Source: an uncultured bacterium (lineage in GTDB: Bacteria > Krumholzibacteriota > Krumholzibacteriia > JACNKJ01). From it: a stretch of DNA of 64,000 nt. The translations under genes and the position numbers were made by a program. Of the stretch, positions 2,063 to 56,413 are shown piece by piece; position 1 is the stretch's first letter, and each line of letters opens with the position of its first letter. The notes beneath the pieces are model-generated. The model searched no databases, had not been told where the DNA came from, and worked only from the letters and a program-made list of their open reading frames with translations. The stretch lies in NCBI GenBank assembly GCA_964344565.1, contig CAYFNT010000012.1, positions 30,648 to 94,647 of the forward strand, written 5' to 3'.

Positions 2063-2113
2063 ACCGGCTCCTTCCGCGTCGGGAAGCGAGCATAGGGGAG
2101 TGGATCCTTTGGA

Positions 2114-19365: not shown

Positions 19366-19482
19366 CTCACCTGCCAGATTGCGTGGGAATTCGACGGAAA
19401 GCACTATCGGACGCGATTTTGCGCCATGTCCCCGAAATGAACAAGCTCCAAAACGCCGGGACTCGCCAGGGGGCACGAAAAA

Positions 19483-19503
19483 GGCCCCGGCATCGCCGGG
19501 GCC
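19483..19503 (-). terminator. Rho-independent terminator downstream of tricorn-like gene
   Basis: Perfect 9-bp stem GGCCCCGGC / GCCGGGGCC with a 3-nt loop. On the minus strand it is followed by TTTTTCG. It lies 25 nt after the stop at 19528. Confidence 0.6.
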
Positions 19504-19527
19504 TTTCGCAGCGGGCAAGAATCGGTG

Positions 19528-22977: not shown

Positions 22978-23182
22978 CGTTCCTCCTTGGAGAGGCTATG
23001 GGGGCGAACACAAGATGGGGGGACGCGAAGGAGCGCCGTTCCCGGCGGGAACGGCGGAATCGCGAAATGGGATGATCCGGAACGACCGGATGCTGCGCTC
23101 CCCCGTAAGAGCGATACGATAACGCTTCCCGTGAAAAGAAGTTACCGGAATGCTGGGGTTATTCTCAAGAAGTCCGCCAATG

Positions 23183-23191: not shown

Positions 23192-23261
23192 AATGATCTC
23201 GAAATCGAGGCGGGGTCTTCGATACCGGGCATTCAATACAATCGCAACCAAAGGTCCACCA

Positions 23262-26200: not shown

Positions 26201-26627
26201 GGACGGGCAGGGGCCCACCCTGGAGCTCATCGACTACGCCAGCGACAACACGCTCCCGGAGAGCTGGGGCGCGTCCATGGGGCACGGCACGCCTGGAAGA
26301 ATCAACAGCCTCACAGATCCCACGGCGGTGGAGTCGGACCCGGTCCCAGGGGTGACGAGTCTCGCGGAGGTCTTCCCCAATCCCTTCAATCCCCATTGCA
26401 CGGTTCGCTTCAGTCTGGCCGACGATGCGAAGGTTCGCCTGAGCGTCCATGATCTGCGGGGCAGACGGGTGGTCACCCTTGCGGACGAGTCCCTGCGAGC
26501 CGGTCGGCACGAGCGGAGCTGGGACGGTCTCGACGAGCGGGGGCGGCCCAGCGCCAGCGGCATCTACTTCCTTCGTCTCCAGGCGGAAGAGCTCCGTTTG
26601 TCCAAGAAGCTGGTGTTGCTGCGATAA
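23262..26627 (+). CDS. Giant secreted multidomain protein: CotH kinase-like domain plus parallel beta-helix region plus lamin-tail domain (LTD) plus T9SS type-A CTD
   Basis: Start at MSSARILKSILGALALLLLLVPQTEA (signal peptide). ORF-track start 23193 would overlap the -10 element. CotH motifs (WYDPSYMRVVMASRFFESAGVPC, GLYVVIQNMDELFLLENGLDPTGNLYKA, YYHNYYMYHD, KWSMFPWDLDKIF). Beta-helix repeats (about 24700-25700). LTD (LVINEINYHSAP..DWVELHNP...GEILLLTGADDTVYDWVMY). C-terminus FPNPFNPHCTVRFSL...SGIYFLRLQAEELRLSKKLVLLR. Confidence 0.75.
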   Translation: MSSARILKSILGALALLLLLVPQTEAQSAPQDYFMSIDPDSLDYIYENYWFDHYVPCTITIDGQLWPDCRVRIRGDSSRELPKKSLKIKTDGALFPNGNDVMNFNADWYDPSYMRVVMASRFFESAGVPCFSAEHGRLHLNGSFWGLYVVIQNMDELFLLENGLDPTGNLYKATKDGASLFYGEPVELRWEKKSNDLGPWDDLYSLIDSLHFVPDDRFGSWAVDNLEIDEIASILASNALLANGSTYYHNYYMYHDINGTGKWSMFPWDLDKIFAQYGESYPYHRSSTSWLHDNPLVERFFVTDSTFDLFHARLDELVDTSFNPDFFYPLMDSLQLVLEESVLNDDTDDIQNIEDWYWVLNNERVVGIEGRIVDTQDQLDHFPRPMRVEPTPHSYQDSIPFNWNSATDPDGDPVTYTLKYSLNYTFPEGSTYVHEDIADTTYTLRMAPPEGNYYWRLYSCDGDSLHNVEGWDSHGTFRVDQGTVLPPVISSNMTLTSYGSPYFVNEDLVVESGVTLTIYPAAEIRLAEDAKITVRGVMDAEGTAINPIMFRRDIFQDERWGALCFDWADGPSLLKHVNIEGTSVGGDYVWEKSAVSSYRTDLVLDHVTFDNCRQSVYSQEADLVLRDCLFLDTNQLEILNVKYGTAAIERCEFHNAGVDGDALDFDTVDYGLIRDCRFTGLPGSDDLIDLGDECVEVVLENNVIVGAPDKGVSVGEKSHALLFRNFIADCAIGVAVKDSSVCDLDRNTFRENLTALSVYEKIFGSGGGFAYADNCIFSASISDDVAVDALSTGEVNYSLSDTEALEGLENLFEDPLFRDPAGGDFRLQPNSPCVDSGDPASPLDPDQTRADMGAYFYDQAPLALVINEINYHSAPDYDCQDWVELHNPLDIPVEVGGLKFKDAGHSFVIPEGTLIGAHNYLVIAENRSAFENFHGSLPNLVGDLGFGFSGAGEILLLTGADDTVYDWVMYDSQPPWPLEPDGQGPTLELIDYASDNTLPESWGASMGHGTPGRINSLTDPTAVESDPVPGVTSLAEVFPNPFNPHCTVRFSLADDAKVRLSVHDLRGRRVVTLADESLRAGRHERSWDGLDERGRPSASGIYFLRLQAEELRLSKKLVLLR

Positions 26628-27449: not shown

Positions 27450-28844
27450 ATGGCGGACTCCGATACCACGAAAAGCTCCGGCACATCCGCGCCGAGAGCC
27501 GCCCAGTACACCGAGGGGAGCGTGATCCGCTCGGTGCTGAACATGGGCTTTCCCTCCATGATCGGATTCGCCGCCACCAACGTCTACGACATCGTGGACA
27601 TGTTCTGGGTGGCCAAGCTCGGCGCATCCAGCGTGGCCGCCGTGACTCTCTTCTTCTCATTCTACTGGGTGATCAGCTCGGCCAACATGATCGCCGGGGC
27701 AGGATCCGTGGCGGTGATTTCGCGCCGTTTCGGCGAGGACGACATCCCCGGCACCGAAGCGGCCATCAAGGAATCGATCCTGCTCAAGCTGGGTCTCGCC
27801 TTGATCGTGGGCTTCGTGGGATACGGATTCCTCTGGCCCGTGCTCAGGCTATTGGGCGCGGAGGGCGAGATTCTGAGGCTCTCGGCCAGCTACGGCAGCG
27901 TGCAGCTCCTGGGCCTCGGCGTGAGCTTCTCGAGCTTCACCATCTACACGGCGCTCAGGAGCGTGGGAGAGCCGCGCAAGGCCATGGTGCTCATGATCGC
28001 GGGTGTGATCCTGAACATCGCCCTGGATCCCTTCCTCATCTTCGGCTGGGGGCCCTTCCCGCGGCTGGAAGTGGCCGGCGCGGCCTGGGCCTCGATCATC
28101 TCCTACGGCTTCACCTTCATCGCCGGCCTGTTCATGTTCTACGGCGGGTTCAGTTCCGTGCGCCTGCATCTGCGCGGGGCCGACCGCGTGAGGCTGAGCC
28201 GCATGATGCACATCCTGCGCATCGGCCTGCCCGCGGGCTTCAACAGCTTCTCCTTCTCACTCGGCCGCGCGGTGATCATGCCCATGGTGGCGGCCTTCGG
28301 CGCCAACGTGGTGGCGGTCTACGGCATGTCCATGCGGGTGACGGCTCTGGGCATCATGATCATCGTGGGCATGGGCCTCGGGCTCTCGGCCCTCATCGGC
28401 CAGAACCTCGGCGCCGGCAAGCCGGAGCGGGCCTGGGACACATCCATCGCCTCGATCCGCTTCCTTGTGGGCGTGACCAGCGTATTCTCGCTGATGGTGA
28501 TCCTGCTGGCGAGGCCCATCACCGGGGCCTTCTTCCAGGATACGGACATCCTCGCCATGGGCGTTCCCACCCTTCGCATCTTCGCCCTGGCCCTGCCCTT
28601 CGCCGCCCTGGGCATCACCTTCGACATTTCATGCAGCGGCGCGGGCGAGAACCGGGCGCCCATGCTCTTCTCGATGCTCCACACCTGGGTCCTGCAGATC
28701 CCCTTCATCCTCATCGCGACGAAACTGCTCGGGCTAGGTTATCAGAGCGTCTGGTGGGCCATGCTGCTTTCGGGCGTGATCGGACCGGGCTTCTTCTGGT
28801 TCACGTATTTCCGGAGAAGGACTTGGCTGGCGAGGAAGGTTTGA
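27450..28844 (+). CDS. MATE-family multidrug/oligosaccharidyl-lipid efflux transporter
   Basis: 464 aa with 12 predicted TM helices and a typical MATE N-terminus (IRSVLNMGFPSMIGFAATNVYDIVDMFWVAKLG). Confidence 0.85.
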   Translation: MADSDTTKSSGTSAPRAAQYTEGSVIRSVLNMGFPSMIGFAATNVYDIVDMFWVAKLGASSVAAVTLFFSFYWVISSANMIAGAGSVAVISRRFGEDDIPGTEAAIKESILLKLGLALIVGFVGYGFLWPVLRLLGAEGEILRLSASYGSVQLLGLGVSFSSFTIYTALRSVGEPRKAMVLMIAGVILNIALDPFLIFGWGPFPRLEVAGAAWASIISYGFTFIAGLFMFYGGFSSVRLHLRGADRVRLSRMMHILRIGLPAGFNSFSFSLGRAVIMPMVAAFGANVVAVYGMSMRVTALGIMIIVGMGLGLSALIGQNLGAGKPERAWDTSIASIRFLVGVTSVFSLMVILLARPITGAFFQDTDILAMGVPTLRIFALALPFAALGITFDISCSGAGENRAPMLFSMLHTWVLQIPFILIATKLLGLGYQSVWWAMLLSGVIGPGFFWFTYFRRRTWLARKV

Positions 28845-28849
28845 ATTAC

Positions 28850-28901
28850 GAACTGTGAACTATGAACTGTGAACTATGAACTGTGAACTATGAACTATGA
28901 A
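28850..28901 (+). repeat. Heptamer tandem repeat (GAACTRT)x7 immediately after the MATE stop codon
   Basis: GAACTGT GAACTAT alternating, 7 full copies from 28850 to 28898. It forms the left arm of a larger imperfect palindrome around the 28906-28928 hairpin. Confidence 0.8.
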
Positions 28902-28905
28902 TAAA

Positions 28906-28928
28906 CCCTCCTCGAATCTCGAGGAGGG
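28906..28928. terminator. Bidirectional rho-independent terminator between convergent MATE gene and hdr/kor operon
   Basis: Perfect 10-bp inverted repeat CCCTCCTCGA / TCGAGGAGGG. It is followed by TGTTTCGTT on the plus strand and TTTATTCATA on the minus strand. Confidence 0.65.
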
Positions 28929-28934
28929 TGTTTC

Positions 28935-28962
28935 GTTCTCAGTTCTCAGTTCTCAGTTCTAG
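28935..28962 (+). repeat. Heptamer tandem repeat (GTTCTCA)x4, inverted relative to the GAACTRT array
   Basis: GTTCTCA GTTCTCA GTTCTCA GTTCTAG. AGTTC is the reverse complement of GAACT in the upstream array. It overlaps the stop codon of the small Zn-ribbon ORF. Confidence 0.8.
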
Positions 28963-29087
28963 TCTTTTCCTTCAGGCAACGGCCTTACGCTATTGCTATG
29001 GCACTCCGGGCAGGACCTTTCCTTGGGCACCTTGGGGTCGTAGGGACCCTGGTACTTATGCCCGCAGCTCAGGCAGTGGAAGGTCAC
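28959..29087 (-). CDS. Small Zn-ribbon protein (FmdB-like CxxC...CxxC), 42-47 aa
   Basis: Hand-translated minus-strand ORF (V/M)TFHCLSCGHKYQGPYDPKVPKERSCPECHSNSVRPLPEGKD*. GTG start at 29087, or TTG at 29102 overlapping the hdrA-mvhD stop. High GC3. Too short for the ORF track. Confidence 0.35.
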   Translation of the reverse strand: MTFHCLSCGHKYQGPYDPKVPKERSCPECHSNSVRPLPEGKD

Positions 29088-29094
29088 GGTGGAC

Positions 29095-31590
29095 TCAGCC
29101 AATGGGCACCTCCTTCCCTTCACCCTGGCGACGCTCGAGGATCTTGGCGCGCTGTTTCTCCTTGCGGGCCGAAACCTTGCCCATTTCCTCGTCCAGGATG
29201 CGCTGGGTCTCCTCGATCTCCTCGAGGGTGACGAACTTGCGCATGCGGTCCAGGTCCTTCATCACCTTGGCGAACTTGCTTCCCTGGGCCGCGCTGATCC
29301 ACTCGAGCTGCAGGCGTTCGGGCCTGATGCCGAGCTTTTCGAGGCGGTTCCAGAGCTTCTCCACGCGTTTCTGCGTCCACTGCACCGCGTTGATGTAGTG
29401 GCAATCGGAGAAGTGGCAGCCGCTGACCAGCACCATGGACGATCCCTGGCGGAAGGCTTCGAGCACGAAGTCCTCGTCCACGCGACCCGAGCACATGGTG
29501 CGGATGAGCCGCGCATGGGCCGGATACTGGGAGCGATTGGTTCCGGCAAGGTCCGCGCCCGGATAGGAGCACCAGTTGCAGGCGAAGGTGACCACCTTCT
29601 CGTGGGCCTTCTCCGCGCAGATGGCTTCGATCTGAGCGTAGATCTGGTCATCGTCGTAGTGACGCATCTTGATGACGTCGGTGGGACACTCCGAGGCGCA
29701 GGTTCCGCAGCCGGCGCAGGCTGCTTCGATGACCTCGGGGAAGATCCCGCCCTTCTTGTCGGGCTTGGTGATGGCCCCGTAGGGGCAGACCGTGGCGCAG
29801 ATTCCGCACTGGGTGCAGTAGGTGTGATCGATCACCGAGGTGATGGCCTCGATGGTCACCTTCCCCGCATTCAGCAGAATGCTGGCCCGGCTCGAGGCCG
29901 CGCTGGCCTGCGTCACCGAGTCCTTCACGTCCTTGGGGAACTCGTTGCAGCCCGCGAAATAGACGCCGCGGCTAGGAGCGTCCACCGGCTTGAGCTTCGG
30001 GTGGCTCTCCATGTAGAAGCCGTCCGAGGTGTTCGAGAGATTCAGCAGCTTCTTGATGATGCCGCCGTCCCGCCGCGGGATGAGCCCCGTGGCCAGCACG
30101 ACCATGTCCAGTTCGTGCTTCTCGAGCTTGCCGGTGGTGGTGTTCTCCACGGTGATCTTGAGGTTGTTCGTTTCCGGATCCTCCTCGATGCCGCCGGGAA
30201 GACCGCGAACGTAACGCACGCCCTCGTCCTTGCTGCGCCGGTAGAGATCCTCGAATCCCTTGCCGAAGGCCCGAATGTCCATGTAGAACACCGAGCTCTC
30301 GCTGTCGGGATAGTGATCCGCCAGAAGCAGGGTGGACTTGACCGTGTTCATGCAGCAAATGTTGCTGCAGTAGGGATTTCCCTTGGGGGACAGGTCCCGC
30401 GAGCCCACGCACTGGATGAAGCCGATACGCTTGGGACGCTCCTTGTCCGAGGGTCGCATGAAGTGACCTTCGGTGGGGCCGCCCGCGCAGATCAGCCGTT
30501 CGAATTCCATCGAGGTGATGACGTTCGGGTAGCGCGTGTATCCGTATTCGTCGTACTCGGTGGGGTCGTAGACGTCCGCGCCGGTGGCCACGATGATCGC
30601 GCCCACCTCGACGTTGATGAACTCGTCCTCCATGTCGTAGTCGATGCAGCCCTTCTCGCAGACTTCCTTGCACTTGCCGCAGGCGATGGGATTGGTGCCC
30701 AGGCAGTTGTCCATGTCGATGAGGAAGGACGAGGGCACCGACTGCGGGAAGGGGATGTAGATAGCCTTCCGGCTGGAGAGACCCTCCTGATACTCGTCGG
30801 GAACGGCCACGGGACAGACCTCGACGCAATCGCCGCAGGCGGTGCACTCGGTCTCGTCCACGTACTTGGCCTTCTTGCGCACCGTCACGTGGAAATTGCC
30901 CACGAATCCGGTGACGTTTTCAACTTCGCTGCTGGTGAGGAGCTTGATCTTGGGATGCCGACCGACATCCATCATTTTGGGCCCCAGAATTCATATAGAG
31001 CAATCCATTGTGGGATAGGTCTTGTCCAACGCGGCCATGATCCCACCGATGCTCGCCTCCTTTTCCACCAGATAGACGTAGTGTCCCGCATCGGCCAGGT
31101 CGAGCGCGGACTGTATTCCCGCGACTCCCCCTCCAACGACCAGTGCGGCTTTCGTCACCGGAACTTCGGTCTCGATCTGAGGCTCCAGGAAGCGGGCCCG
31201 GGCCACGGATGAGGCGACCAGGTCCTTGGCCTTGGCGGTGGCCTCGCCTTTCTGCCCCGAGTGCACCCAACTCACGTGTTCGCGGATGTTCGCCATCTCC
31301 AGGAGGTAGGGGTTCAGTCCCGCCTCCTTCAGGCAATTCCGGAACGTGGGCTCGTGGATCTTCGGGGTGCAGGAGGCCACGACGACGCGATTGAGCTTGT
31401 GCTCGTGCACCGCCTTGATGATCTCCATCTGCCCGGGATCCGCGCAGGTGTACTTGTTTCCCACCACCGCCACCACATCGGGCAGGGTTGCCGCGAATTT
31501 CGCGACCTCCGCCGTGTCGACCGTGCCGGCGATGTTCTTTCCGCAATCGCAGACGAACACGCCGATGCGAAGGTCCTGCGGTTTTACCAT
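29095..31590 (-). CDS. hdrA: Heterodisulfide reductase subunit A (HdrA) fused to a C-terminal MvhD/FlpD domain; candidate selenoprotein with in-frame UGA (30993-30991) decoded as Sec
   Basis: ORFs 30991..31590 and 29095..30975 are collinear. They are separated only by TGA plus 15 nt in the same frame: ...[12 protein letters not shown][UGA][18 protein letters not shown]. This aligns with the canonical HdrA ...FPT.DCSMCILAPKMV..GRHPNIKL, with the UGA exactly at the second Cys of the redox CxxC. The N-terminal 4Fe-4S domain ([12 protein letters not shown]) and FAD site ([20 protein letters not shown]) are present. The C-terminal 140 aa are an MvhD domain ([15 protein letters not shown]...[10 protein letters not shown]). 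Confidence 0.75.
30953..30970 (-). ncRNA. Candidate bacterial SECIS-like hairpin about 23 nt downstream of the hdrA UGA
   Basis: mRNA GGAUG-UCGGUCGG-CAUCC: a 5-bp stem with an 8-nt loop containing GGU, beginning 23 nt 3' of the UGA. The position is compatible with a SelB-binding SECIS, but it is weakly defined. Confidence 0.25.
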
Positions 31591-32735
31591 GAACCATTAC
31601 CTCCATCGATGGACTCGGCCACCACCGTGGCGAAGTCGCGGATTTGGAGACTGCTCAATCGATCATCCTTTTCGCTGGCCTGGGCGCAGCGCAAATGAAT
31701 CTGGCATTTGGGACAGGCCGTGACGAGGGTCTCGGCCCCCGCGTCGGCCGCCTCGCGGAGACGCTCGGTCTGGATGCGCTTGGACACCGCGTTGCAGTGC
31801 ATCCAGCCTGAGGTGCCGCAGCAGACGCTGTCCTTTCCGTGATGCTCCATCTCGTGGAAACTCTCGCCGAAGATCTCGCCGAGGGCCGCCCGGGGCGCTT
31901 CGTATTCGCCCAGGTGCCGGCTGAGACGACAGGGATCCTGGAATGTCACCTCGCCCTTCAGGCCGCCGAATTCCACCCCACCATTCTCGCCCTTCCGCGC
32001 GAGGTATTCGGAGAGGTGAAGCGCCTCGTAGGGCACCTCGCCGGCGAGTTTCGGGTAGATCTCCCGCAGCATGAAGACGCATTCGGGACAGGACGAGACC
32101 ACCGTCTTCGCGCCGGCGGCCGCGATCTTCTCCACGTTCTTACTGGCGAGCCGGGCCGCGCTCCTCTCGTCGCCGCTCCAGTACAGGTCATGGCCGCAGC
32201 AGAGCTCGTCGGGCAGCAGCACGGGCTCTTCGCCCAGGGCATTGAGCACGCGGAGGGTGTCCTTGCCGATGCGCTGGGTGTCGGTGCCCAGATGCGTGTA
32301 GTAGCTGTCGTAATAGGGGAGGCAGCCGGTGAAGTAGAGCAGCTCGCCCTCGCCGGCCGTCTTCGCCTCCTCGGGCACCCATCCCAGGCGCTTCTGCTCG
32401 CGGCCGTTCTGGCTCATGATGCGCATCATGTGCTGGAAGACCGCGCCGTGGCTGCAGGCAGGGTCCGCGCCGTCGGCGCGCAATACCTCGCGTCCCTTGC
32501 GGGTGAACTGGGAATAGTCCACTTCTGAGGGACAGACCAGGCTGCAGAGCATGCAGGTGAGGCAGAGGTTGAACTTGGCCGGGGCCTGTCCTTCCGGGGC
32601 ATGCACCGCATGGGTCACCACCATGCGCGGCGAGAACTCCTCGTCGTATCGGGAGACGGGGCAGACGCCCGTGCACTTGCCGCAGTCCTGACAGAGCGTG
32701 GCATGAGTCTCGCGGAGGGCTTCCCTGAGGATCAT
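31584..32735 (-). CDS. HdrD-like Fe-S oxidoreductase (HdrC-type 2x[4Fe-4S] plus two HdrB-type CCG domains)
   Basis: The real start is ATG 32735 ([21 protein letters not shown]); the 511-aa ORF-track version carries a spurious N-terminal extension. Motifs [12 protein letters not shown] and [12 protein letters not shown] (ferredoxin), then LCCGHDLYW and VCCGTSGW (CCG domains). The stop overlaps the hdrA start (ATGGTAA). Confidence 0.75.
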
Positions 32736-33172
32736 CACTTCACCTCCGTGAGCTGGGGGACGGCTCCGATGGGGCCGCGAGGTCCGCTGGCTTCGAGCTG
32801 ATCGCGGAACTCCTGGACCGTTTCGAGGATCCGATCCGCCTTTCCCGGAGGGAAGAAGCGCACCCTGAAACGACTGGATTCCACACCGAGCATGTCCAGC
32901 ATGGGATCCACCCGACCGATGGTGTTCTCGAGCATCGCCGTGCCCGTGCCGTAGTGGCAGTCGCCCTCCTCGCAGGCCGCGATGAAGACGCCGTCGGCGC
33001 CCGACTCGAAAGCCTGCAGCACGAAGGAGGGATGGATGCGCCCCGTGCAAAGACTGCGGAGCACCGCGCTGCCCTCGGGCAGTTCGCGCTCCTCCTCCAG
33101 ACCCAAGGGGAAGCACCACTTGCAGGAGAAGATCATGAGGCGAGGTTTCCAGTTGCCTTCGATGGTTTTCAT
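32735..33172 (-). CDS. mvhD: MvhD/FlpD-like (methyl-viologen-reducing hydrogenase delta subunit family) small Fe-S protein
   Basis: The real start is ATG 33172 (MKTIEGNWKPRLMIFSCKWCFPLG..., SD GGAGGTGA). It shows the MvhD signature with conserved Cys (CKWC...CTGRI...ACEEGDCHY). ATGA overlap with the downstream gene. Confidence 0.7.
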   Translation of the reverse strand: MKTIEGNWKPRLMIFSCKWCFPLGLEEERELPEGSAVLRSLCTGRIHPSFVLQAFESGADGVFIAACEEGDCHYGTGTAMLENTIGRVDPMLDMLGVESSRFRVRFFPPGKADRILETVQEFRDQLEASGPRGPIGAVPQLTEVK

Positions 33173-35169
33173 GAGCTCACCTCCACGCTCTCCCTGAGAA
33201 GGGCGTCGATCTCCCGGCGGACGAAGTCGTTCCGGAAGTATCCCGGAACCATGGCCTGGGTGGGACAGAGGGGCACGCAGTTTCCGCATCCCTTGCAGCG
33301 GTCCGCGAGCACCCTCGCCACCTGGACGTCCTCGCCCCGGTGCTCCATGATGATGGCCTCGTAGTCGCAGCCCTTTAGGCAGTCCTCGCAGCCGCGGCAG
33401 AGCTTCTCGTTCACCTGGCAGACCAGGCTCGAGAGCTTCATGCCCAGGCGTTCGACCACCTTCTTGCCTTCGCGCCGGCTCTTCCATTCCAGAGCCACCG
33501 GTTCGGGAAGGAGGGGGAGCGGGAACTGCTCGTCGTTGTCGGGAATGCGCAGGAAGAGCGGCACGCTGTGCTCGCTCTCATCGAAGGAGAGCAGGCCGAT
33601 GCGGTAGCGGCAATCGCCCGCGCAGGTCTGGCACTCGTCGCAGGGCCCGCAGCGGAGGCAGCGTCCGGCTTCGGCCACCGCCATGTCCTGGGCGAAACCG
33701 AGTTCGACCTCGTCGAAACCGCCTCGCTTCTCCACCGGCAGTTCGGGTTGCACGGCCCGCCTGCGCTCGGAGGGCAGGGGAGGCTGCACGCCCACCTCGA
33801 TGGGACGGGAGGATTCGTCGCCGAAGGCGCGCCCCTCCAGCCAGGCGTGGGCGGCCTTGGCGGCGCGGTGCCCCTGGGCGATGGCGCCGATGACCGTGTC
33901 GGGTCCCAGCACCAGGTCGCCCGCGGCGAAGACGCCTTCCACGTCGGTCATGAGGCTCGCGGAATCGGCCTCGAGGGTGCCCCAGCCGCTTTTCTTGAAG
34001 GGCAGGTCCTCGGGCAGCAGGTCGAGGTTGGCTTCCTGGCTGATGGCCGGAACGATGAGGTCGGCCTCCACCGTGAAGGTGTCGTCCTTGATGGGCACGG
34101 GACGGCGGCGTCCGCTCTCGTCGGGCTCGCCCAGTTCCATGCGCTGGCAGAGAAGCCCCGTGACCTTGCCCTTCTTGCCGACCACTTCCAGCGGTCCGGC
34201 CAGGAAGGTGAAGGTGACGCCCTCGTTCTCGGCCTCGACCACCTCCTCGGGCACGGCGGGCATCTCATCCTTGGTGCGCCGGTAGACCACCTCGACCTTC
34301 TCGAAGCCGAGGCGGCGGGCGGTGCGGGCCGCGTCCATGGCGCTCATGCCGCCGCCCACGACGATCAGGCTCTTCCCCTTTGGAATGGCCTTGCCGCGGC
34401 TGGCCATACGCAGGAAGGTGAGGCAGTCGAAGACGCCCGAGTTCTCCCGCTCGCCGGGCACGTTCATCTTCTTGCCCAGGGCGGCGCCCAGGGCGAGGAT
34501 GACGGCGGCGTAGCCTTCGTCGCGGATTTCTTCCAGGGTGATGTCCTTGCCCACGCGCAGGCCGGTCTTGATCTCCACGCCCAGGGATTCGATGTGGGCG
34601 ACTTCGCCCGCCACGATCTCGCGGGGCAGGCGGAAGGAGGGGATGCACTGAACGAGCATGCCGCCGGCGGTCTCGTCGGACTCGTAGACCGTGACGCCGT
34701 AGCCCAGGTGAGCCAGGTCGAAGGCCGCGGCCAGTCCGGCCGGACCCGCGCCGATGACGGCCACCTTCTCCGGTCTGCTACCGGCCACGCGCGCCGGCGC
34801 CGGACCCGGATTGTCCAGCTCCCAGTCGGCCACGAAGCGCTTGAGCAGCCGGATGGCCAGGGGGTCGTCCAGGTCGCTGCGTCGGCAGTTCAGTTCGCAG
34901 GGATGGGTGCAGACGCGTCCGCAGATGCCGGGCAGGGGACAGTCCTTGCGCACGAGTTCCACCGCCTCGCGGAACTTGCCGTCGGCGATGAGGCCCACGT
35001 AGCCCTTCACGTTCACGCCGGCCGGACAGGCCGCGTGGCAGGGGGAGGCGTCGATGCGCTGGAGCAGGCGGGGACCGTAGCGTCCTCCCAGATCCATTTG
35101 GATACCGCCCGTTTCCAGGGCCTGCCAGAAACTCTCCGGGAATCCCGATTTCCAGAGGGGCTTGACCAA
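33169..35169 (-). CDS. GltD/NfnB/SudA-like NAD(P)H:acceptor oxidoreductase (FAD/NAD binding, N-terminal 2x[4Fe-4S]) with C-terminal ferredoxin-like extension
   Basis: TTG start 35169 with SD GGAGGA 6 nt upstream. N-terminal CHAACPAGVN...CPLPGICGRVCTHPCELNC. Two Rossmann motifs (VAVIGAGPAGLAAA, LIVVGGGMSAMDAA). C-terminal CLRCGPCDECQTCAGDC and CRGCEDC...CKGCGNCVPLCP. Confidence 0.75.
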   Translation of the reverse strand: MVKPLWKSGFPESFWQALETGGIQMDLGGRYGPRLLQRIDASPCHAACPAGVNVKGYVGLIADGKFREAVELVRKDCPLPGICGRVCTHPCELNCRRSDLDDPLAIRLLKRFVADWELDNPGPAPARVAGSRPEKVAVIGAGPAGLAAAFDLAHLGYGVTVYESDETAGGMLVQCIPSFRLPREIVAGEVAHIESLGVEIKTGLRVGKDITLEEIRDEGYAAVILALGAALGKKMNVPGERENSGVFDCLTFLRMASRGKAIPKGKSLIVVGGGMSAMDAARTARRLGFEKVEVVYRRTKDEMPAVPEEVVEAENEGVTFTFLAGPLEVVGKKGKVTGLLCQRMELGEPDESGRRRPVPIKDDTFTVEADLIVPAISQEANLDLLPEDLPFKKSGWGTLEADSASLMTDVEGVFAAGDLVLGPDTVIGAIAQGHRAAKAAHAWLEGRAFGDESSRPIEVGVQPPLPSERRRAVQPELPVEKRGGFDEVELGFAQDMAVAEAGRCLRCGPCDECQTCAGDCRYRIGLLSFDESEHSVPLFLRIPDNDEQFPLPLLPEPVALEWKSRREGKKVVERLGMKLSSLVCQVNEKLCRGCEDCLKGCDYEAIIMEHRGEDVQVARVLADRCKGCGNCVPLCPTQAMVPGYFRNDFVRREIDALLRESVEVSS

Positions 35170-35206
35170 GCTTCCTCCTCAGGCGGCCGGCCGGGCCGGC
35201 GCGATT

Positions 35207-35758
35207 CTAGCCCACGGGGGCCAGGAGTTTTTGTCCTTCCTCGAAGCCCGTCGCGAAGGCCTTGAGGTTGAGTTCGATGGTGCTTCCGGGCACCGAGCTC
35301 TCCACCGCTTTCTCCACCGCTTCCCGGTCGACGATGCCCGTCACGGCCGTGGTGAATCCCACCACGACGATGTTCTGGACGATGCGGTTGCCCAGTTCCT
35401 CGGCCAGTCGCGCCGCCTGAATGCCGTAGGCGTTCACTTCCGGACGATCGTGGGGGCTCACCAGGTCGCTGTCGTAGACGAGGATCGCGCCGTCCTTGAG
35501 CTCGTCGGCGTACTTTTCGTAACCCTCGCGACTCAGCGCGATGAGCACGTCGGTGCCGGTGAGATAGGGATAGGCGATGAACTCGTCGTCGACGACCAGG
35601 GCCGAGGCGCAGGCGCTGCCTCGAGCTTCGGGGCCGAAACTCTGCGTCATGGTCGAGTGGATGTTGCCGAAGATGGCCGCCGCCTTGCCGAAGATGTATC
35701 CGGTCAGAATGACGCCCTGGCCGCCGTAGCCGGTGATGCGAATCTCCGTCCTAGGCAT
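35207..35758 (-). CDS. 2-oxoacid:ferredoxin oxidoreductase gamma subunit
   Basis: Start ATG 35758 (MPRTEIRITGYGGQGVILTGYIFG, SD AAGGAGGA); the listed 205-aa ORF has a spurious extension. POR/KOR gamma family. Confidence 0.8.
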   Translation of the reverse strand: MPRTEIRITGYGGQGVILTGYIFGKAAAIFGNIHSTMTQSFGPEARGSACASALVVDDEFIAYPYLTGTDVLIALSREGYEKYADELKDGAILVYDSDLVSPHDRPEVNAYGIQAARLAEELGNRIVQNIVVVGFTTAVTGIVDREAVEKAVESSVPGSTIELNLKAFATGFEEGQKLLAPVG

Positions 35759-36668
35759 GGAGCTCCTCCTTGCACATTTCGCAGGCTTCCTCGTGGAGGT
35801 AGTACTTCTCGCCGAGCGTGGCATCGTGCTGCTCCATGCTCTTCATCCTCCAGGTGGGACGATCCCGGTCGACGAATCTGCCCACCGTGATCTTGTTCTG
35901 ATAGCCGATGTCGATCTCCCGCGGATCGGCTCCGTGCTGGATCTCGGCGTTGTCGTGGTAGAAACGCATGAGATCGTAGCCGCTGCCCAGCTTGTTGCGT
36001 CGCGCGTAGAGCGTGGAGCAGGGCGCGATGGCCTCCACGAAGCTGAAGCCCGGCTTGAGCAGGGCCTCCTTCAGGGAGTCGGTCAGTCGCCGCACGTGCA
36101 GGGAGGTCCAGCGCGCCACGTAGGTGGCGCCGCAGGCTTCCATGAGGTGGGGAAGGTTGAAGGGCTGCTCGTAGGCTCCGTGGGGAGTCGTCGAGGTGTT
36201 GGCCGTATGGGGCGTGGTGGGGGCCACCTGCCCGCCGGTCATGCCGTAGATGAAGTTGTTCACGCAGACCACGGTGATGTCCATGTTCCGCCGGGCGGCG
36301 TGGATGATGTGATTGCCGCCGATGGCGAAGAGGTCGCCGTCGCCGCTGAAGACCACGACCTTGAGCTTGGGGTTGGCCAGCTTCAGGCCCGTGGCGAAGG
36401 GGATGGCCCTGCCGTGGGTGGTGTGATAGCTGTCCAGCTTCACGTAGCCCGCCACGCGGCCCGTGCAGCCGATGCCCGAGACGATGGCCACGTCGTCGTA
36501 GTCGATGCCGGCCTTGTCGATGGCCTCGGCGAAGCACTTCACCACGGTGCCGATGCCGCAGGTGGCGCACCAGATGTGCGGCAGCCGGTCGGCCCTCAGC
36601 AGGTGATCCATGGGGTGGCGATCTTCCTCCACCGCGTCGTAGCAGGCGTCAATCGTCTTCTCGCTCAT
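35751..36668 (-). CDS. 2-oxoacid:ferredoxin oxidoreductase beta subunit (TPP-binding)
   Basis: Start ATG 36668 ([13 protein letters not shown]). The 661-aa ORF-track version is an extension through the alpha gene in another frame. Motifs WCATCGIG, GIGCTGRV and FSGDGDLFAIGGNH (TPP-binding). Confidence 0.85.
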   Translation of the reverse strand: MSEKTIDACYDAVEEDRHPMDHLLRADRLPHIWCATCGIGTVVKCFAEAIDKAGIDYDDVAIVSGIGCTGRVAGYVKLDSYHTTHGRAIPFATGLKLANPKLKVVVFSGDGDLFAIGGNHIIHAARRNMDITVVCVNNFIYGMTGGQVAPTTPHTANTSTTPHGAYEQPFNLPHLMEACGATYVARWTSLHVRRLTDSLKEALLKPGFSFVEAIAPCSTLYARRNKLGSGYDLMRFYHDNAEIQHGADPREIDIGYQNKITVGRFVDRDRPTWRMKSMEQHDATLGEKYYLHEEACEMCKEELHA

Positions 36669-37825
36669 TTCGCCGCCTCCTCGATGGCCCGGAGAATGTC
36701 CTCCGGGTTGTGCACGGTGCCTCCCATGTGGGGGACCAGTATGGTTTCGGCCTTGCCCTCGGCGCAGCGTTCCACCTCGAGGCTGATCTGGCCGTAGTTG
36801 ATCTCGGGGACCACGATGGCCTTCACCTGTTCGGCGAGTTCCTTCACCCGCCAGTCGGGGAAGGGCCAGACGGTGAGCAGACGAACCGTGCCCACCTTGA
36901 TGCCCTTGGCCCGCGCCGCGTCGATGGCCGCGCGGGAGACCCGCGAGGTGATGCCGTAGGAGAGCAGGATGACCTCGGCTCCCTCGACCTCTTCCTCCTC
37001 GAGCATCACGATGTCCCGGGCATTGTCGCGGATCTTGTCGCAGAGCCGCCGGACCAGGGTGTCCTGCACATTGGCGTCCATGGCGGGATAGCCGCGATCG
37101 TCGTGGGTCAGGCCCGTGATGTGGTAGCGGTGCCCCTCGCCGGCGTGGGCCATGGCGGGGATCTGATCCTCTCCGACCTCGTAGGGCAGGTACTCGCCCT
37201 TGGGCTTGTCGGTCATCTTCCGGGGGAGGATCTTGATCTGGTCCGCCTCGGGAATGACCACCCTCTCGGTCATGTGGCCGATGCACTCGTCGAGCATCAC
37301 GAAGACCGGCGTGCGGTACTTCTCGGCGAGGTTGAAAGCCTTGATGGTCAGGGTGAAGGCTTCCTGGGGACTCTGCGGCGCGAGGGCGATGATCTCGTAG
37401 TCGCCGTGGCTGCCCCAGCGGGCCTGCATGATGTCCTGCTGGCCGACCATGGTGGGCAGACCGGTGGAGGGACCGGCGCGCTGCACGTTCACGATGACGC
37501 AGGGCGTCTCGGTCATGGCCGCCAGGCCGATGTTCTCCATCATCAGGCTGAAGCCCGGTCCGCTGGTCACGGTCATGGACTTCGCGCCGCCCCAGGTCGC
37601 GCCCAGGATGGCGGTGACCGAGGCGATCTCGTCCTCCATCTGGATGAAGGTTCCGCCGAGGGTCGGAATGCGGCGGGCGTAGCGCTCGACCACTTCCGTG
37701 GAGGGCGTGATCGGATAGCCCGCGACGAAATCGCAACCGGCGGCCAGGGCGCCTTCGGTGCAGGCGTGGTCGCCGTCGAGGTAGTGACTGCCCGTGAGCA
37801 CTCGCTTCGGATCAGCTAGCTTCAC
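36665..37825 (-). CDS. 2-oxoacid:ferredoxin oxidoreductase alpha subunit
   Basis: GTG start 37825 with SD GGGGAGGTG. POR/KOR alpha family ([29 protein letters not shown]). ATGA overlap with the beta gene. Confidence 0.85.
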
Positions 37826-38102
37826 TTCGCACCTCCCCTTCCTTCTTCTCCGGCAGGACGAAGATGGCGAAGTCGGGGCAGATCACTTCGCAGAGGTCGC
37901 AGTCGACGCATCGATCGGCCTGCTTCACTTCCGGATAGTGATAACCCTTGGCATTGAACTCGGCGGACATGACGAGCACGTCCCGCGGACAGAACTCCGC
38001 GCAGAACTCGCAGCCTTTGCAACGTTCGATGATGATGTGGATGTCGCCACGCGGGACTTTGATATCGTGGACATCGAGGGGCTCGCGCCAATACCGCGGC
38101 AT
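37812..38102 (-). CDS. 2-oxoacid:ferredoxin oxidoreductase delta subunit (2x[4Fe-4S] ferredoxin)
   Basis: 96 aa with [12 protein letters not shown] and [12 protein letters not shown]. First gene of the delta-alpha-beta-gamma cluster. Overlaps the alpha-subunit start. Confidence 0.8.
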
Positions 38103-38254
38103 CTTGTCCTCTTCCCGGTGAGGGTGGAAGAGCGAGGTTAGTAACCGCTTACTCCGACCCTTACCCTGAGCTGGAAGTGATGCTTCCCCACAAGTCGAAC
38201 CGAGGAGAAGCCGGGCCGACAGAACGATCCAAGGACCGTCTTTATTTAGAGTTA

Positions 38255-38283
38255 AAGATACACGGGTCTTGAGATCTTGTAAA
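38255..38283 (-). promoter_or_regulatory. Candidate sigma70-type promoter for the kor-hdr operon (TTTACA-N17-TATCTT on minus strand)
   Basis: Found in the AT-rich stretch of the 470-nt divergent intergenic region. -35 TTTACA (38283-38278) and -10 TATCTT (38260-38255) with a 17-nt spacer. Confidence 0.3.
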
Positions 38284-38492
38284 CATCAAAATGGCGCCAG
38301 GAATACGAGTTTTCCCCAATTTTCAGAGAAAGGGAAACTCGACGATGGCCCTTCGAGCGCTCCGTTTCGGTAGGACGAGATCTCTCACGATGGCAGCGTC
38401 TGGGGCCTGCCTCAGAGTCGGCAGGAAGGGCCCTCGGCAAGTTTCCAATTGGACCGTGGACGGTTCCTCAGCTCAGGCAGCGATGGCAGGTT

Positions 38493-38506
38493 TGTACACG
38501 TGTACA
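38493..38506. promoter_or_regulatory. 14-bp perfect palindrome TGTACACGTGTACA (LacI/GalR-type operator architecture) upstream of GH57-CTD gene
   Basis: TG..CG..CA spacing identical to the cre/LacI-family 14-mer. It lies 68-81 nt upstream of ATG 38574 and about 35 nt upstream of the TGCTATAAT element. The same sequence recurs at 54934 and 62221. Confidence 0.5.
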
Positions 38507-38540
38507 CATCTGGCCGGTAGCGGGCAGCGGGCCGTGGATT

Positions 38541-38549
38541 TGCTATAAT
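38541..38549 (+). promoter_or_regulatory. Extended -10 element TGcTATAAT for the GH57-CTD gene
   Basis: TGCTATAAT at 38541-38549, 25 nt upstream of the ATG. SD AAAGGA. Confidence 0.45.
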
Positions 38550-38573
38550 CGAATCCCAGCCCGAAAGGACACC

Positions 38574-41500
38574 ATGCGCAAGGCACTGCTTCTCCTGTTC
38601 CTCGCCGGGGCGAGTCTGGCTTCCACCGGCGTCCACACGACCTACCTCTGGCACATGCATCAGCCCATCTACTGGCCGGACGAGAGCGTTTGGACACCCG
38701 GACGTTACCAAACCGCCTACGAAACCCTCCTTGGCGGCTATTGCCAGAACGACCTGGCCGAGATCTTCGGCAAGGACGACCGCATCGGCGACTACCAATG
38801 GTATCCCCGGGATGCGGTGGCCAGCATGCTGGACCTGCCCGAGGCGGGAGCGCAGGTGTCCTTCGCGGGGGCGCTGGTCGAGAACATCGAGAGCCTGGCC
38901 GAGGCAGGCTGGGACGGTGGGGTCTACGCGAGCGACTGGACCTCGCACTACCGCGAGGCGAGGGGCTGGACCACGAGCGCCGGCGAGCCCAGGCTGGAGC
39001 CGCTGGTGGTGGGATTCCATCACGCCATCGCGCCGCTCATGGACGATGTGGCTTTCCGCATGGAGCTCGCCTGCGCCAAGGCCATCTACGACGAGGCCTG
39101 GGGCGACTCGAATTTCTCGCGAGGTTTCTTCCCCGCCGAGATGTGCTTCAGCGAGCGCCTCATTCCCGCCCTGGTCGACGCGGGCCTCGACTGGTCGGTG
39201 GTGGGGGATCTGCATATCGCGCGGGCCTGCGAGAACTATCCCTATCAGGCGAATCTGGACAACTGCGACCCGCCCAACCGGGCCGACCAGGTGAATCCGC
39301 CCCAGAGCGACTGGACCAACCACAGCATTCCACGGGGCGTGACGCTCAAAGTGCCCTACCCTTACGGCTTCACGCCGCACCGGGCCGAGTACGTGGACCC
39401 GTCCACTGGCGAGGTTTCGAACCTGGTGGTGGTGCCGGCCGCCAACGCCATGAGTTGGGACGAGGGTTACGGCATGTTCGGCACGGGTTCCATCGACGCC
39501 ATCGCCGGGAGCAACGATCCTGCGCATCCCATGCTGATTCTGCTGGCCCATGACGGCGACAACGCCTGGAGCGGCGGACACAGCTACTACTACGAATCGG
39601 TGCCCAACTTCTCCCACGCCGCCGCGGACGCGGGCTACACGCCGAGCACGGTGGCGACCTATCTCGAACATCATCCGGTTCCGCTCGACGACGTGGTGCA
39701 TGTGGAGGACGGCGGATGGGTGAACGCCGACGGCGACTTCGGCAGCCCGCAATTCATCAACTGGAACTGGCCGCCGGTGGACGCGGCGGGGAACTTCGAC
39801 ATACCCGGCGGATGGGCGGAGGACGAGCGCAACTGGGCCGTGCTCACGGCGGCGCAGAACGTGGTGGAATCCGCCGAGGCCGTGGGCGGCGCGCCCGATC
39901 CCGAGCGCGTGGTCTTCCCCTTGAGCGGGGCCAGCGCCGTGGAGCGGGCCTGGCATTTCCTGCTGGCGGGCTACGAGAGCGGCTACATGTACTACGGCTC
40001 GTCGCTGGACATGGAAGTGAAGGCCACCCTCGCCTGCAATGCGGCCCTCGAGGCGGCCCTGCCCCTGGCCGAGAGCGGTGCCGATATCGTAGCGCCCAGT
40101 ATCTGGCTGCCCCAACGCCTGCCATGGAATCCGGGCGGCAAGGGCGGCGGCAGCCTCTGGGGATATCCCGGCGGCGCGGGCGCGGACATGAGCCGCGACT
40201 TCTTCGTCTGGACCTTCATCCACGACATCTCGGGACTCTCGCGTGTCGAGATCATGGTCCGCGAGGATCTGGACGGCCACAACGATCCCGGCAGCCACGA
40301 CAACGAAATCTACGCGGGGGGGCCTGAGGTGGGCGCCTGGTCGGCCCTGCCCATGAACCATCGCGCGATGCCCCTGGGCGAGCCCTGGGACATCCCGGGC
40401 ATCGATTTCACGGTGCTGCCCGAGCGCATCGCCGACGAGTACTGGATCGAATTGACGGGCTACGGCGATGTGCTGCTGGACTACTACGTGGAGGCCGAGG
40501 ATTCTCTGGGCAACGTGAAGAGGAGTCCCATCCAGCACGTCTACGTGGGCACGGGCGACGCGGGCGGCGACGGTTCGGCATGGTGGGAGCCCGAACTTCC
40601 GGAAGCCGGCGATTGGATCACCGTCTACTACGATCCTGCCGGTGGACCCCTGGACGGCGCGGCGGAGATCATCCTGCACCACGGCATCAACGGCTGGCAG
40701 GAAGTAGGTGATACGCCCATGGACTGGAACCTCGTCGACGAGCACTGGCATAAGGGCATCCAGCTGCCTGAGCACGCGTCGAGTTTCGAGTTCGTCTTCC
40801 ACGACGGCCTCGGCAACTGGGACAACAACGGCGGCGCCGATTGGATCGTGCCCGTGAGCGGCGGAGGCGGCGGCTTCGTCATGGACGGCCTTCTCGATGA
40901 GGGCGTATTGCAGATCTCCGGCGACGGGATGAACCTCTGGGTCGCCCGCGAAGGCGACCAGCTCTATCTCGCGACCGAGGGTACCGGCGCGACGGGGCTC
41001 GATCACTTCCTCTTCCTGCTCGACGAACCGGGCGCTCCAGTTTCCGCACCCTGGGCCAAGGCGGGACAGGTTCTGCCCTGGGCCTACTATCTCGGGGCCG
41101 AGAGCTCCAACGGCTGGTTCGCTTGGTTCGATGCTGGCAGCAATGTGCAGATCGGTCCCGAGTTCTCATCGGCCCAGGGCGAGGTGCTCGAAGGATTGCT
41201 CGATCTCGACTCGCTCTTTGCATCCGTTCCGCCGGAAAGCCTCTGGGTGGCCGCCGCGGGATACGACGATCCCGACGCAGGTTCCCTGATTGCCCAGGCG
41301 CCCTTCGGCGACGGCGACGGCGACATGGAAGCGCACGAGTACTATCTACTCCTGGACCTGTCCACCCGGGTGGACGAGTCGCCCGAGGCGCCGCTCGCGG
41401 TCTCGCTTTATCCGAATCCCTTCAACCCGGATGTCCGCCTGAGTTTGGACAGCCCGGATGGTGACCTGACAATACGCATCTATGACCTGGAAGGCCGCTA

Positions 41501-49106: not shown

Positions 49107-49114
49107 GTCGGACC

Positions 49115-56378: not shown

Positions 56379-56413
56379 GTTCGGATTCCCGAAGCCCATT
56401 CCATGGAGGCCTC

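Follow-up and report, generated by a model that had tools for sequence, protein, structure and literature searches.

Does a 2-oxoacid:ferredoxin oxidoreductase (OFOR) that is encoded in one row with the parts of a heterodisulfide reductase (Hdr) act with them as a single electron-bifurcating machine, or do two enzymes merely share a transcript? The question is raised by nine co-directional genes occupying positions 28959-38102 on the minus strand of a 64,000-nucleotide stretch of contig CAYFNT010000012.1 from an uncultured bacterium of the Krumholzibacteriota lineage (the whole stretch is hereafter referred to as the window). HdrA-type bifurcation is best understood in methanogens, much less so with regard to its bacterial partners and the bacterial "heterodisulfide". 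An initial sequence-only reading of the window described these genes as a redox operon in which an OFOR of Kor type is joined by HdrA-, MvhD-, HdrD- and NfnB-like components, and regarded the product as a candidate flavin-based bifurcating complex. Comparative evidence presented below supports this candidacy; bifurcation as such, the physical complex, its operating direction and the identities of the 2-oxoacid and of the high-potential partner are what we infer rather than observe. We give moderate credence to the reading in which one transcription unit combines a KorDABC of the 2-oxoglutarate type with a dedicated HdrA-type flavin-based electron-bifurcation module. Judged by analogy, its most likely function would be that of a bifurcating or confurcating system linking NAD(P)H, a 2-oxoacid/acyl-CoA couple (or ferredoxin) and a high-potential acceptor. 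The operon links an HdrA selenoprotein of near-canonical form with the most reducing step of the tricarboxylic acid (TCA) cycle, and does so in at least eight bacterial phyla dominating anoxic sediments, among them Neomarinimicrobiota, Calditrichota, KSB1, Zixibacteria, WOR-3, Chloroflexota and Planctomycetota. If its products form one machine, this would account for the way in which the carriers make or dispose of electrons at -500 mV, would extend the "Hdr-Flx-OGOR" hypothesis of the reductive TCA (rTCA) cycle far past tubeworm symbionts (OGOR, 2-oxoglutarate:ferredoxin oxidoreductase), and would offer a defined nine-gene target in the search for the missing thiol or protein acceptor.

Organization of the nine-gene unit

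The listing of open reading frames (ORFs), direct reading of the sequence and setting of start codons gave the gene order korD, korA, korB, korC, GltD/NfnB-like gene, mvhD, HdrD-like gene, hdrA-mvhD and zinc-ribbon gene in 5′ to 3′ direction (Table 1). Content, order and strand coincide with those of the sequence-only reading, its domain assignments agree with matches in Pfam, NCBIfam and PDB, and its selenocysteine (Sec) codon is borne out too; the interval that it had drawn from 29095 encloses eight of the genes and leaves the zinc-ribbon gene (29087-28959) just outside. The tight or overlapping boundaries noted there were found again on reading the sequence: ATGA junctions connect korA with korB and the GltD-like gene with mvhD, mvhD meets the HdrD-like gene in TGATG and the latter meets hdrA in ATGGTAA, while korD and korA overlap over 14 nt and korB and korC over 8 nt. 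The only gaps are those of 7 nt between hdrA and the zinc-ribbon gene and of 37 nt between korC and the GltD-like gene (35170-35206), the widest in the unit. A ribosome-binding site of GGAGG type precedes all nine genes.

The candidate promoter of sigma-70-like type is the sole promoter-like match upstream of the unit, being a match to consensus in a scan that did not include promoters of the Fibrobacteres-Chlorobi-Bacteroidetes (FCB) type. At the opposite end the terminator-like hairpin (TTATTCAT) directly follows the zinc-ribbon gene and is the only minus-strand site of this kind between 28500 and 39000; the same consensus approach found none inside the unit. Thus signals that could split the kor part from the hdr part, named in the sequence-only reading as an observation that would refute it, were not encountered between the first and the last gene. 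The flanking genes, encoding a MATE transporter, a GNAT acetyltransferase and a secreted GH57/CBM53 protein, are unrelated and lie on the opposite strand, which makes the unit discrete. Taken by its layout, the row of nine genes is predicted to be one operon.

Table 1. Position of genes, recoding elements and transcription signals of the kor-hdr unit in the window
Feature	Position	Strand	Remarks
korD, delta subunit	37812..38102	-	96 aa; two CxxCxxCxxxCP [4Fe-4S] motifs
korA, alpha subunit	36665..37825	-	386 aa; GTG start; 14-nt overlap with korD
korB, beta (thiamine pyrophosphate, TPP) subunit	35751..36668	-	305 aa; ATGA overlap with korA
korC, gamma subunit	35207..35758	-	183 aa; overlaps korB by 8 nt
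GltD/NfnB-like NAD(P)H flavoprotein	33169..35169	-	666 aa; TTG start
mvhD, free-standing [2Fe-2S] connector	32735..33172	-	145 aa; ATGA overlap with the GltD-like gene
HdrD-like protein	31584..32735	-	383 aa
HdrA-MvhD fusion selenoprotein	29095..31590	-	831 aa, counting Sec200; overlaps the HdrD-like gene in ATGGTAA
In-frame TGA, selenocysteine codon (DCSI-U)	30991..30993	-	aligns with Cys197 (DCSIC197) of 5ODC_A
SECIS-like hairpin GGAUGUC-GGUC-GGCAUCC	30953..30970	-	begins 20 nt past the UGA
Zinc-ribbon protein	28959..29087	-	42 aa; GTG start; CxxC...CPxC-SNSVR
Sigma-70-like promoter candidate TTTACA-17-TATCTT	38255..38283	-	about 150 nt upstream of korD
Intrinsic-terminator-like hairpin	28905..28929	-	11 bp with 7 GC pairs, then a short U-rich tail

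Both intergenic regions bordering the unit contain repeats. In the convergent space between the zinc-ribbon and MATE genes two tandem heptamer arrays flank the terminator (28842-28901 and 28935-28960), one of TGAACTA in 8.6 copies, which is better described by the 14-nt period TGAACTATGAACTG, and another of GTTCTCA in 3.7 copies. The divergent region of about 470 nt between korD and the GH57/CBM53 gene holds a near-perfect palindrome TGTACACGTGTACA (38487-38512), which could be a candidate operator, as well as a 10-nt inverted repeat (38306-38341) located just upstream of the promoter-like site. No sequence resembling the Rex operator TTGTGAAnnnnTTCACAA with up to 3 mismatches was found near the operon.

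Subunits and cofactor motifs

The first four genes possess the domains expected for each subunit of an OFOR. KorD matches Fer4_7 (E=1.3e-10, Pfam), KorA matches POR_N (E=1.6e-72) and PFOR_II (1.1e-21), KorB contains TPP_enzyme_C (E=1e-35) together with a GDGD...NN motif and Cys ligands for a [4Fe-4S] cluster read in its sequence, and KorC contains POR (E=6.7e-34). Among NCBIfam models, PRK08659 recognizes KorA with 573 bits over the cut-off of 411 and PRK08537 recognizes KorC with 188 bits, and KorD scores 71.9 bits under the cut-off of 125 for OGOR_delta. The nearest solved homologues of KorA in PDB are 1yd7 (E=2e-115), the 2-oxoglutarate synthase 8ys5 and MmOGOR 6n2n. By these features KorDABC is assigned to the four-subunit alpha-beta-gamma-delta type of 2-oxoacid:ferredoxin oxidoreductases. 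KorB of the window lineage carries a C-terminal CxxC (CEMC; EEACEMCKEELHA, about 35754-35800); its consideration as a docking or zinc site was dropped, as the motif is not conserved in other kor-linked loci.

The GltD-like flavoprotein begins with a 2x[4Fe-4S] domain (Fer4_20) followed by FAD- and NAD(P)H-binding Rossmann folds (Pyr_redox_2) and ends with a 2x[4Fe-4S] ferredoxin domain of HdrA type, which occupies about the last 85 residues (about 578-661) and matches residues about 571-656 of HdrA (8rvu_a/5odc_A); a Cys-rich stretch CLRCGPCDECQTCAGDC lies between the Rossmann folds and this domain. The NCBIfam model PRK12771 matches with 495.6 bits, and the closest solved relatives of the GltD-like module are its NADPH-binding counterparts in NfnABC/StnABC of Bfu type and in NfnB (9bov, 9n5u, 8oh5, 4ylf_B and 5jca_L; E=1e-87 to 1e-117; for NfnB, 4YLF_B, E=3e-94). 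A VVYRR motif following the second Rossmann strand suggests a preference for NADPH, if, as we assume, what holds for GltD and NfnB may be carried over. Since no gene for an NfnA- or PyrK-like partner is present in the operon, the protein is not a component of Nfn. The adjacent free-standing MvhD matches FlpD (E=2.9e-27, Pfam) and, in NCBIfam, VhuD and the C-terminus of HdrA2. A GltD-like protein furnished with an HdrA-type ferredoxin domain and followed by MvhD is the arrangement that would be expected for an electron-input arm.

The HdrD-like protein starts with two CxxCxxCxxxC motifs and continues with two CCG domains (E=1.4e-30, Pfam), in both of which the cluster-binding motif is complete: C138..C179C180..C216xxC219 and C269..C305C306..C341xxC344. 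Of more than 1500 homologues, 30 were compared, and all ten CCG cysteines together with those of the CxxCxxCxxxC motifs are invariant among them. The family profile matches HdrC at residues 13-107 (5odc_C, E=1.7e-16) and then HdrB at residues 159-375 (8rvv_B, E=1.7e-08), so that the protein represents a soluble HdrC-HdrB fusion, bearing out the earlier suggestion that one CCG protein stands in place of separate HdrB and HdrC. It does not belong to the HdrDE type, because neither HdrE/cytochrome b nor another membrane anchor is encoded in the unit.

HdrA-MvhD selenoprotein and its recoding signal

The eighth gene encodes a full set of HdrA domains, namely the N-terminal cluster domain, the thioredoxin reductase-like FAD domain, and 2x[4Fe-4S] ferredoxin domains both inserted and at the C-terminus. 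Alignment with the crystallised HdrA from Methanothermococcus thermolithotrophicus (5ODC_A, 785 bits) pairs residues 6-658 with its residues 3-650 and shows no large gaps, keeping the CxxC/U pair at position 197 and a Lys aligned with Lys409, while residues 664-780 align with MvhD (5odc_D; FlpD, E=5.3e-44). The HdrA2 model NF040770 scores the halves separated by the Sec codon at 296.5 and 836.2 bits, the sum of which, set beside the cut-off of 1100, is not a formal score. In HdrA of Methanococcus maripaludis position 197 is likewise Sec and forms a Cys-Sec pair between FAD and cluster A3 (PMC13518236).

Conservation points to the in-frame UGA as a genuine selenocysteine codon. Among 48 HdrA orthologues, taken as matches of at least 58% identity covering the Sec position in the set of related loci L001-L080 described below, 45 have TGA at this place, and 3, originating from Bathyarchaeia (archaea) and Chloroflexota metagenome-assembled genomes (MAGs), have Cys. 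The hairpin following the UGA is read as a bacterial selenocysteine insertion sequence (SECIS) element: over 43 distinct sequences from genomes of widely differing base composition its synonymous sites are near-frozen (GAT in 42 of 43, GGT in 42, CAT in all 43), and one stem pair covaries, being U-A in 25 sequences, C-G in 9, U-G in 7 and mismatched in 2. An Rfam scan of 28500-38600 at E<=1 returned no match, and the whole stretch past the UGA folds with a stability no better than that of shuffled controls (z = -0.04), so that only the local hairpin is informative. No tRNA-Sec gene is present in the window; sel genes were not sought. Public gene calls cut hdrA at the UGA into ORFs of 199 and 626 aa, as in the window's own 96.9-kb metagenome contig in ENA (L081, 16236-18731). 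The same split was noted in three further contigs (L083-L085), representing a systematic mis-annotation of a conserved Sec gene.

The small protein encoded after hdrA shows weak similarity to Zn_ribbon_8 (Pfam) and to the FmdB family (NCBIfam). Its homologues directly follow hdrA in the fetched loci, where 41 tblastn matches were obtained (one of them being the window's own contig L081), with the consensus FKCLRCGHEY..ER.CPKC.SNSVR.

Conservation of the kor-hdr linkage

When one genome of each species was scanned, at least 589 loci were obtained; 80 of them (L001-L080) were kept and compared with all nine window proteins by tblastn. Where the downstream HdrA was orthologous (at least 58% identity) and at least 7.5 kb of upstream sequence was available, korDABC was found upstream on the same strand in 26 of 28 loci, as against 2 of 14 loci lacking that HdrA. 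A reciprocal search from the other side, using KorA homologues of 70-80% identity on four long contigs, revealed the hdr module on three of them (L083, L084, L085). Thus the linkage is strongly conserved in relatives, and this check, which the sequence-only reading had named as one that could refute it, does not do so. korD is kept upstream of korA in 32 related loci, and the GltD-like gene keeps its place in 19. These 19 loci reproduce the exact architecture of the window in at least six phyla, with representatives in Neomarinimicrobiota, KSB1, WOR-3, Dehalococcoidales, Anaerolineae and Desulfobacterales as well as a MAG of the "FCB group" and several more that are unclassified.

A further 13 kor-linked loci have a tandem-HdrA selenoprotein of about 1015 aa in place of the GltD-like gene. 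They are assigned to Calditrichota, Ignavibacteria, Zixibacteria, Gemmatimonadota, Planctomycetales, to MAGs labelled Cytophagia and Pseudomonadota, and to unclassified ones. This "second flavoprotein" was considered as a GltD homologue and rejected as such: it contains two HdrA-like FAD domains (L083, 12558-15617; L084, 12138-15293) and shares with the window protein only the C-terminal ferredoxin domain. In a WOR-3 chromosome (L020, about 5036-9424) the same position is taken by an HdrL-like HdrA-GltD-HdrA fusion of about 1460 aa. Gene order is likewise variable. L083 and L084 have extra hdrC and hdrB genes after the zinc-ribbon gene; in the latter locus a 4-nt overlap joins korB to the hdrA-like gene that comes next, and korC follows the extra hdrC-hdrB pair; L036 has a divergent kor, and L044 a korD abutting gltD. 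Gene order is reshuffled among loci while the linkage of kor with hdr persists, and the arrangement is common in MAGs. Since it recurs in many uncultured anaerobic phyla, the operon probably encodes one redox machine.

Clustering of ORFs around 39 kor-linked loci revealed citrate synthase beside or inside the cluster in 7 cases and adjoining malate dehydrogenase in 5; in a KSB1 locus (L033, 8377-9678) citrate synthase is inserted between mvhD and hdrD. This gene context favours a TCA-cycle setting for Kor. Other recurrent neighbours are Fe-S assembly genes, regulators of GAF and Rrf2 types and hemerythrin, and no thiol carrier, electron-transfer flavoprotein (ETF), DsrC, TfrA or membrane anchor recurs around these 39 loci. 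Citrate synthase, malate dehydrogenase or hemerythrin neighbours were noted at L033, L015, L030, L037, L079, L010, L041 and L022, and a hemerythrin gene separates hdrA from the zinc-ribbon gene in L009, L022, L033 and L038.

Comparison with known systems

The closest precedent is the rTCA cluster tfrBA-hdrC-hdrB-korD-korA-korB-korC-hdrA-flxD-flxC-flxB-flxA-aclBA of tubeworm symbionts (Ca. Endoriftia and the Escarpia symbiont) and Thioflavicoccus mobilis (Rubin-Blum 2019, PMC6315080; Mitchell 2024, PMC11636981). Its authors proposed a complex bifurcating NADH electrons straight to OGOR and to thiol:fumarate reductase (PMC6315080), and co-expression across the cluster, including intergenic regions, was reported (PMC11636981). 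Both arrangements share a korDABC that adjoins, in the same orientation, hdrA, an MvhD-like gene (flxD in the symbionts), CCG genes and a pyridine-nucleotide module. The symbiont cluster, however, employs FlxABC as the NADH module and separate HdrB and HdrC instead of a GltD-like protein and fused HdrCB, whereas the HdrA-MvhD fusion, the second MvhD and the zinc-ribbon protein are found only in the window. The symbiont cluster contains tfrAB and aclAB; neither pair is present in the operon or among those flanking genes that were examined in the window, and loci related to the latter carry citrate synthase and malate dehydrogenase in their place. The hosts differ too, being autotrophic Gammaproteobacteria in the first case and a broader, mostly heterotrophic assembly of FCB, Chloroflexota and similar bacteria in the second. 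Thus the statement of the sequence-only reading that this is not a textbook operon holds true for the arrangement but not for the concept, which has a precedent in korABCD interleaved with flxABCD-hdrABC. The operon is best filed as a widespread, newly seen version of an already proposed coupling between OFOR and HdrA bifurcation rather than as something categorically new. A search of the literature accessible to us found no published description of a kor-hdr operon of GltD/HdrD type, although an earlier account in Pereira et al. 2011 or Appel et al. 2021 (BBA) is possible. Genome papers on carrier lineages (Zixibacteria: Castelle et al.; WOR-3; Caldithrix) treat OGOR and Hdr as separate enzymes.

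Methanogen complexes HdrABC-MvhAGD and Hdr-Fdh-Fmd/Hdr-Vhu-Fwd (5ODC, 7BKB, 8RVU; PMC13518236) share with the window a colinear HdrA, the Cys/Sec197 pair, the MvhD connector and clusters of HdrC/HdrB type. There a CO2-reducing enzyme is wired firmly to the low-potential branch, as may also hold for the window; electrons enter from H2 or formate and the partner is formylmethanofuran dehydrogenase, in contrast to NAD(P)H via the GltD-like protein and an OFOR partner, HdrB and HdrC are fused in the window, and CoM-S-S-CoB (the heterodisulfide of coenzymes M and B) is not expected in these bacteria. HdrA2B2C2 of Methanosarcina (NF040770) has the same HdrA-MvhD fusion, and HdrA2 is the best NCBIfam match of the window protein, but this enzyme uses F420H2, has separate HdrB2 and HdrC2, and lacks both Kor and a GltD-like module. 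Class II benzoyl-CoA reductase (BCRII) BamBCDEFGHI (bioRxiv 10.64898/2026.04.10.717634) is built on the same modular logic: BamE is its HdrA-like selenoprotein, BamD its HdrBC fusion and BamF its MvhD-like protein, and these are joined by a module for pyridine nucleotides and by a catalytic one, to which the low-potential branch is wired; in its tandem-FAD organization BamE resembles the tandem-HdrA variant of the 13 kor-linked loci. It differs in that the catalytic module is of the tungsten aldehyde oxidoreductase type instead of OFOR, the NADH module is NuoEFG/HydBC-like, and BamD, whose distal cluster is degraded, reduces ETF.

HdrL and HdrA-NfnB fusions, described in Desulfobacterium autotrophicum (PMC2702500) and as HdrA9-11 in anaerobic methanotrophic archaea (ANME-1; PMC9012536), likewise join a GltD/NfnB-like module to HdrA-type domains, are followed by mvhD and are often selenoproteins, whereas the window flavoprotein keeps only the GltD-like part and the HdrA C-terminal ferredoxin domain. 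HdrD-like genes also occur in hdrA clusters of ANME (PMC9012536), and kor beside HdrL loci is not reported in PMC2702500 and PMC9012536. The likeness to Flx-Hdr and Nfn systems claimed in the sequence-only reading is partial. From FlxABCD-HdrABC the unit retains the FlxD equivalent (MvhD) and Hdr parts, and FlxABC subunits are absent; NfnAB/NfnSL and the Bfu-type NfnABC/StnABC (4YLF, 5JCA, 9BOV, 9N5U, 8OH5) include the closest solved homologues of the GltD-like module, but these enzymes have an NfnA/PyrK-like or HydB/C-like partner, neither of which is encoded in the operon.

Proposed electron flow and alternative explanations

In solved Hdr complexes electrons enter by way of MvhD and HdrA's C-terminal ferredoxin domain and are bifurcated at the flavin; the high-potential electron goes to HdrC and HdrB, and the low-potential one is handed over by the ferredoxin domains, either to ferredoxin or directly to a CO2-reducing partner. 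By analogy with them, NAD(P)H would be oxidized at the FAD of the GltD-like protein, and electrons would proceed through its Fe-S clusters to the HdrA-type C-terminal ferredoxin domain, further to the [2Fe-2S] cluster of the free MvhD and then to the FAD of the HdrA-MvhD selenoprotein. The low-potential branch would lead through the HdrA ferredoxin domains to KorD and Kor, either via free ferredoxin or directly, the direct wiring being modelled on Hdr-Fmd/Fwd supercomplexes and BCRII, and would drive the conversion of succinyl-CoA and CO2 to 2-oxoglutarate. The high-potential branch would pass the HdrC-like cubane and two non-cubane clusters of the HdrD-like protein to reach a disulfide or a protein acceptor. 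In catabolism the system may run in reverse, confurcating 2-oxoacid- and thiol-derived electrons into NAD(P)H; for a heterotrophic host either this confurcating direction or an anabolic role as 2-oxoglutarate synthase is conceivable.

Several observations speak against such a bifurcating Kor-Hdr unit. The window operon has no gene for a candidate thiol/disulfide carrier, for thiol:fumarate reductase or ETF, or for a membrane anchor, and the host appears to be a polysaccharide-degrading heterotroph with no obvious need for a reductive OGOR. The OGOR-specific NCBIfam models remain below their cut-offs (PRK09627/KorA 396 versus 579, PRK09628/KorB 251 versus 364, KorD 72 versus 125). NAD(P)H is not a universal partner, as the 13 tandem-HdrA loci have replaced its module. 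A Sumerlaeota contig (L086) encodes KorA of 73% identity without an hdr module. Finally, the 37-nt gap divides two translationally coupled blocks, so that two separate enzymes sharing a ferredoxin pool fit the arrangement equally well.

This latter explanation, in which an ordinary KorDABC reduces free ferredoxin and a soluble Hdr/GltD-type NAD(P)H:ferredoxin:(disulfide) oxidoreductase balances the pools with no physical wiring between them, seems to us rather unlikely, yet it is not without evidence. Apart from the contrast of that gap with the overlaps found elsewhere and the hdr-less Kor homologue of L086, KorD is a normal ferredoxin-like delta subunit, mvhD-hdrD-hdrA modules devoid of kor exist in Dehalococcoidia, Desulfobacterales and Bathyarchaeia, and Castelle et al. 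took co-clustered OGOR, pyruvate:ferredoxin oxidoreductase (PFOR), Mvh/Hdr and Nfn for separate ferredoxin-dependent enzymes. However, the linkage with Kor is specific to one HdrA/HdrD orthogroup, as the two groups of loci compared above demonstrate, kor is interleaved or translationally coupled with hdr in some lineages (L084, L083), and solved Hdr-type complexes wire the low-potential branch straight to the partner enzyme. Still less credible is a linear, non-bifurcating NAD(P)+-dependent 2-oxoacid oxidoreductase resembling the NADH-dependent phenylglyoxylate dehydrogenase PadEFGHI, in which electrons from Kor would run downhill over Fe-S and flavin subunits to NAD(P)+ and the CCG protein would serve only as a wire of Fe-S clusters or for thiol-based regulation. 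OFORs with an added NAD-reducing flavoprotein subunit are known, the NCBIfam Pad subunits are weakly similar to KorA, KorB and KorC, the GltD-like module is a typical NAD(P)(H) site, and the HdrD-like BamD of BCRII reduces no disulfide; but this scheme, which we hold to be improbable, leaves unexplained why a complete bifurcation-type HdrA with its near-invariant Sec197, a pair of MvhD modules and the two non-cubane cluster motifs with all their ligands are retained, and why the tandem-HdrA loci keep the rest while the NAD(P)H module is missing.

The nature of the acceptor may be considered separately from bifurcation as such. With the same electron flow, the HdrD-like protein could deliver electrons not to a low-molecular-weight disulfide but to a redox protein (ETF-, DsrC- or thioredoxin-like) or to menaquinone encoded elsewhere. 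We take this as a tentative option. BamD, itself an HdrBC fusion, hands electrons to ETF, DsrC serves as the "bacterial heterodisulfide" for Flx-Hdr, synthesis of coenzymes M and B is not expected in these bacteria (Castelle et al.), and the operon holds no thiol-handling gene. On the other hand, the invariance of all ten CCG cysteines, in contrast to the loss of the distal non-cubane cluster from most BamD proteins, is the arrangement of HdrB disulfide chemistry, and neither ETF nor DsrC nor a membrane partner is consistently adjacent in the 39 loci. The favoured reading of one transcription unit with a dedicated bifurcation module may also be carried further, to a hard-wired OGOR-Hdr supercomplex constituting a new class of bifurcating enzymes in more than 10 mostly uncultured phyla, where NADPH electrons, aided by the Cys-Sec relay, are split at the HdrA flavin, half passing into or out of the 2-oxoacid synthase and half to the "bacterial heterodisulfide". 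We regard this extension as speculative and doubtful; if true, it would provide Rnf-independent control over the most reducing step of the TCA cycle.

Genomic surroundings and host

Enzymes acting on starch and glycogen (GH57, GH13, CBM48, CBM53, AMPK1_CBM) abound in the window, which also encodes a CotH-domain protein, the corresponding regions being 23193-26627, 38574-41660, 43204-45357, 47049-49475 and 56354-59311. Several of these proteins end in FlgD_ig or Por_Secre_tail sorting domains, by which a polysaccharide-degrading host of the FCB type is suggested; the many secreted enzymes for starch and glucans give it the look of a heterotroph. Further genes of the window include an ORF of 3056 aa (10357-19527, minus strand) with GH94 supersandwich and catalytic domains and a glucoamylase-like domain, by which it resembles a cyclic beta-1,2-glucan synthase or phosphorylase, the neighbouring tricorn-type protease (19528-22995), and an MttB-family (trimethylamine methyltransferase-like) protein (596-2113, minus strand; Pfam E=3.7e-78).

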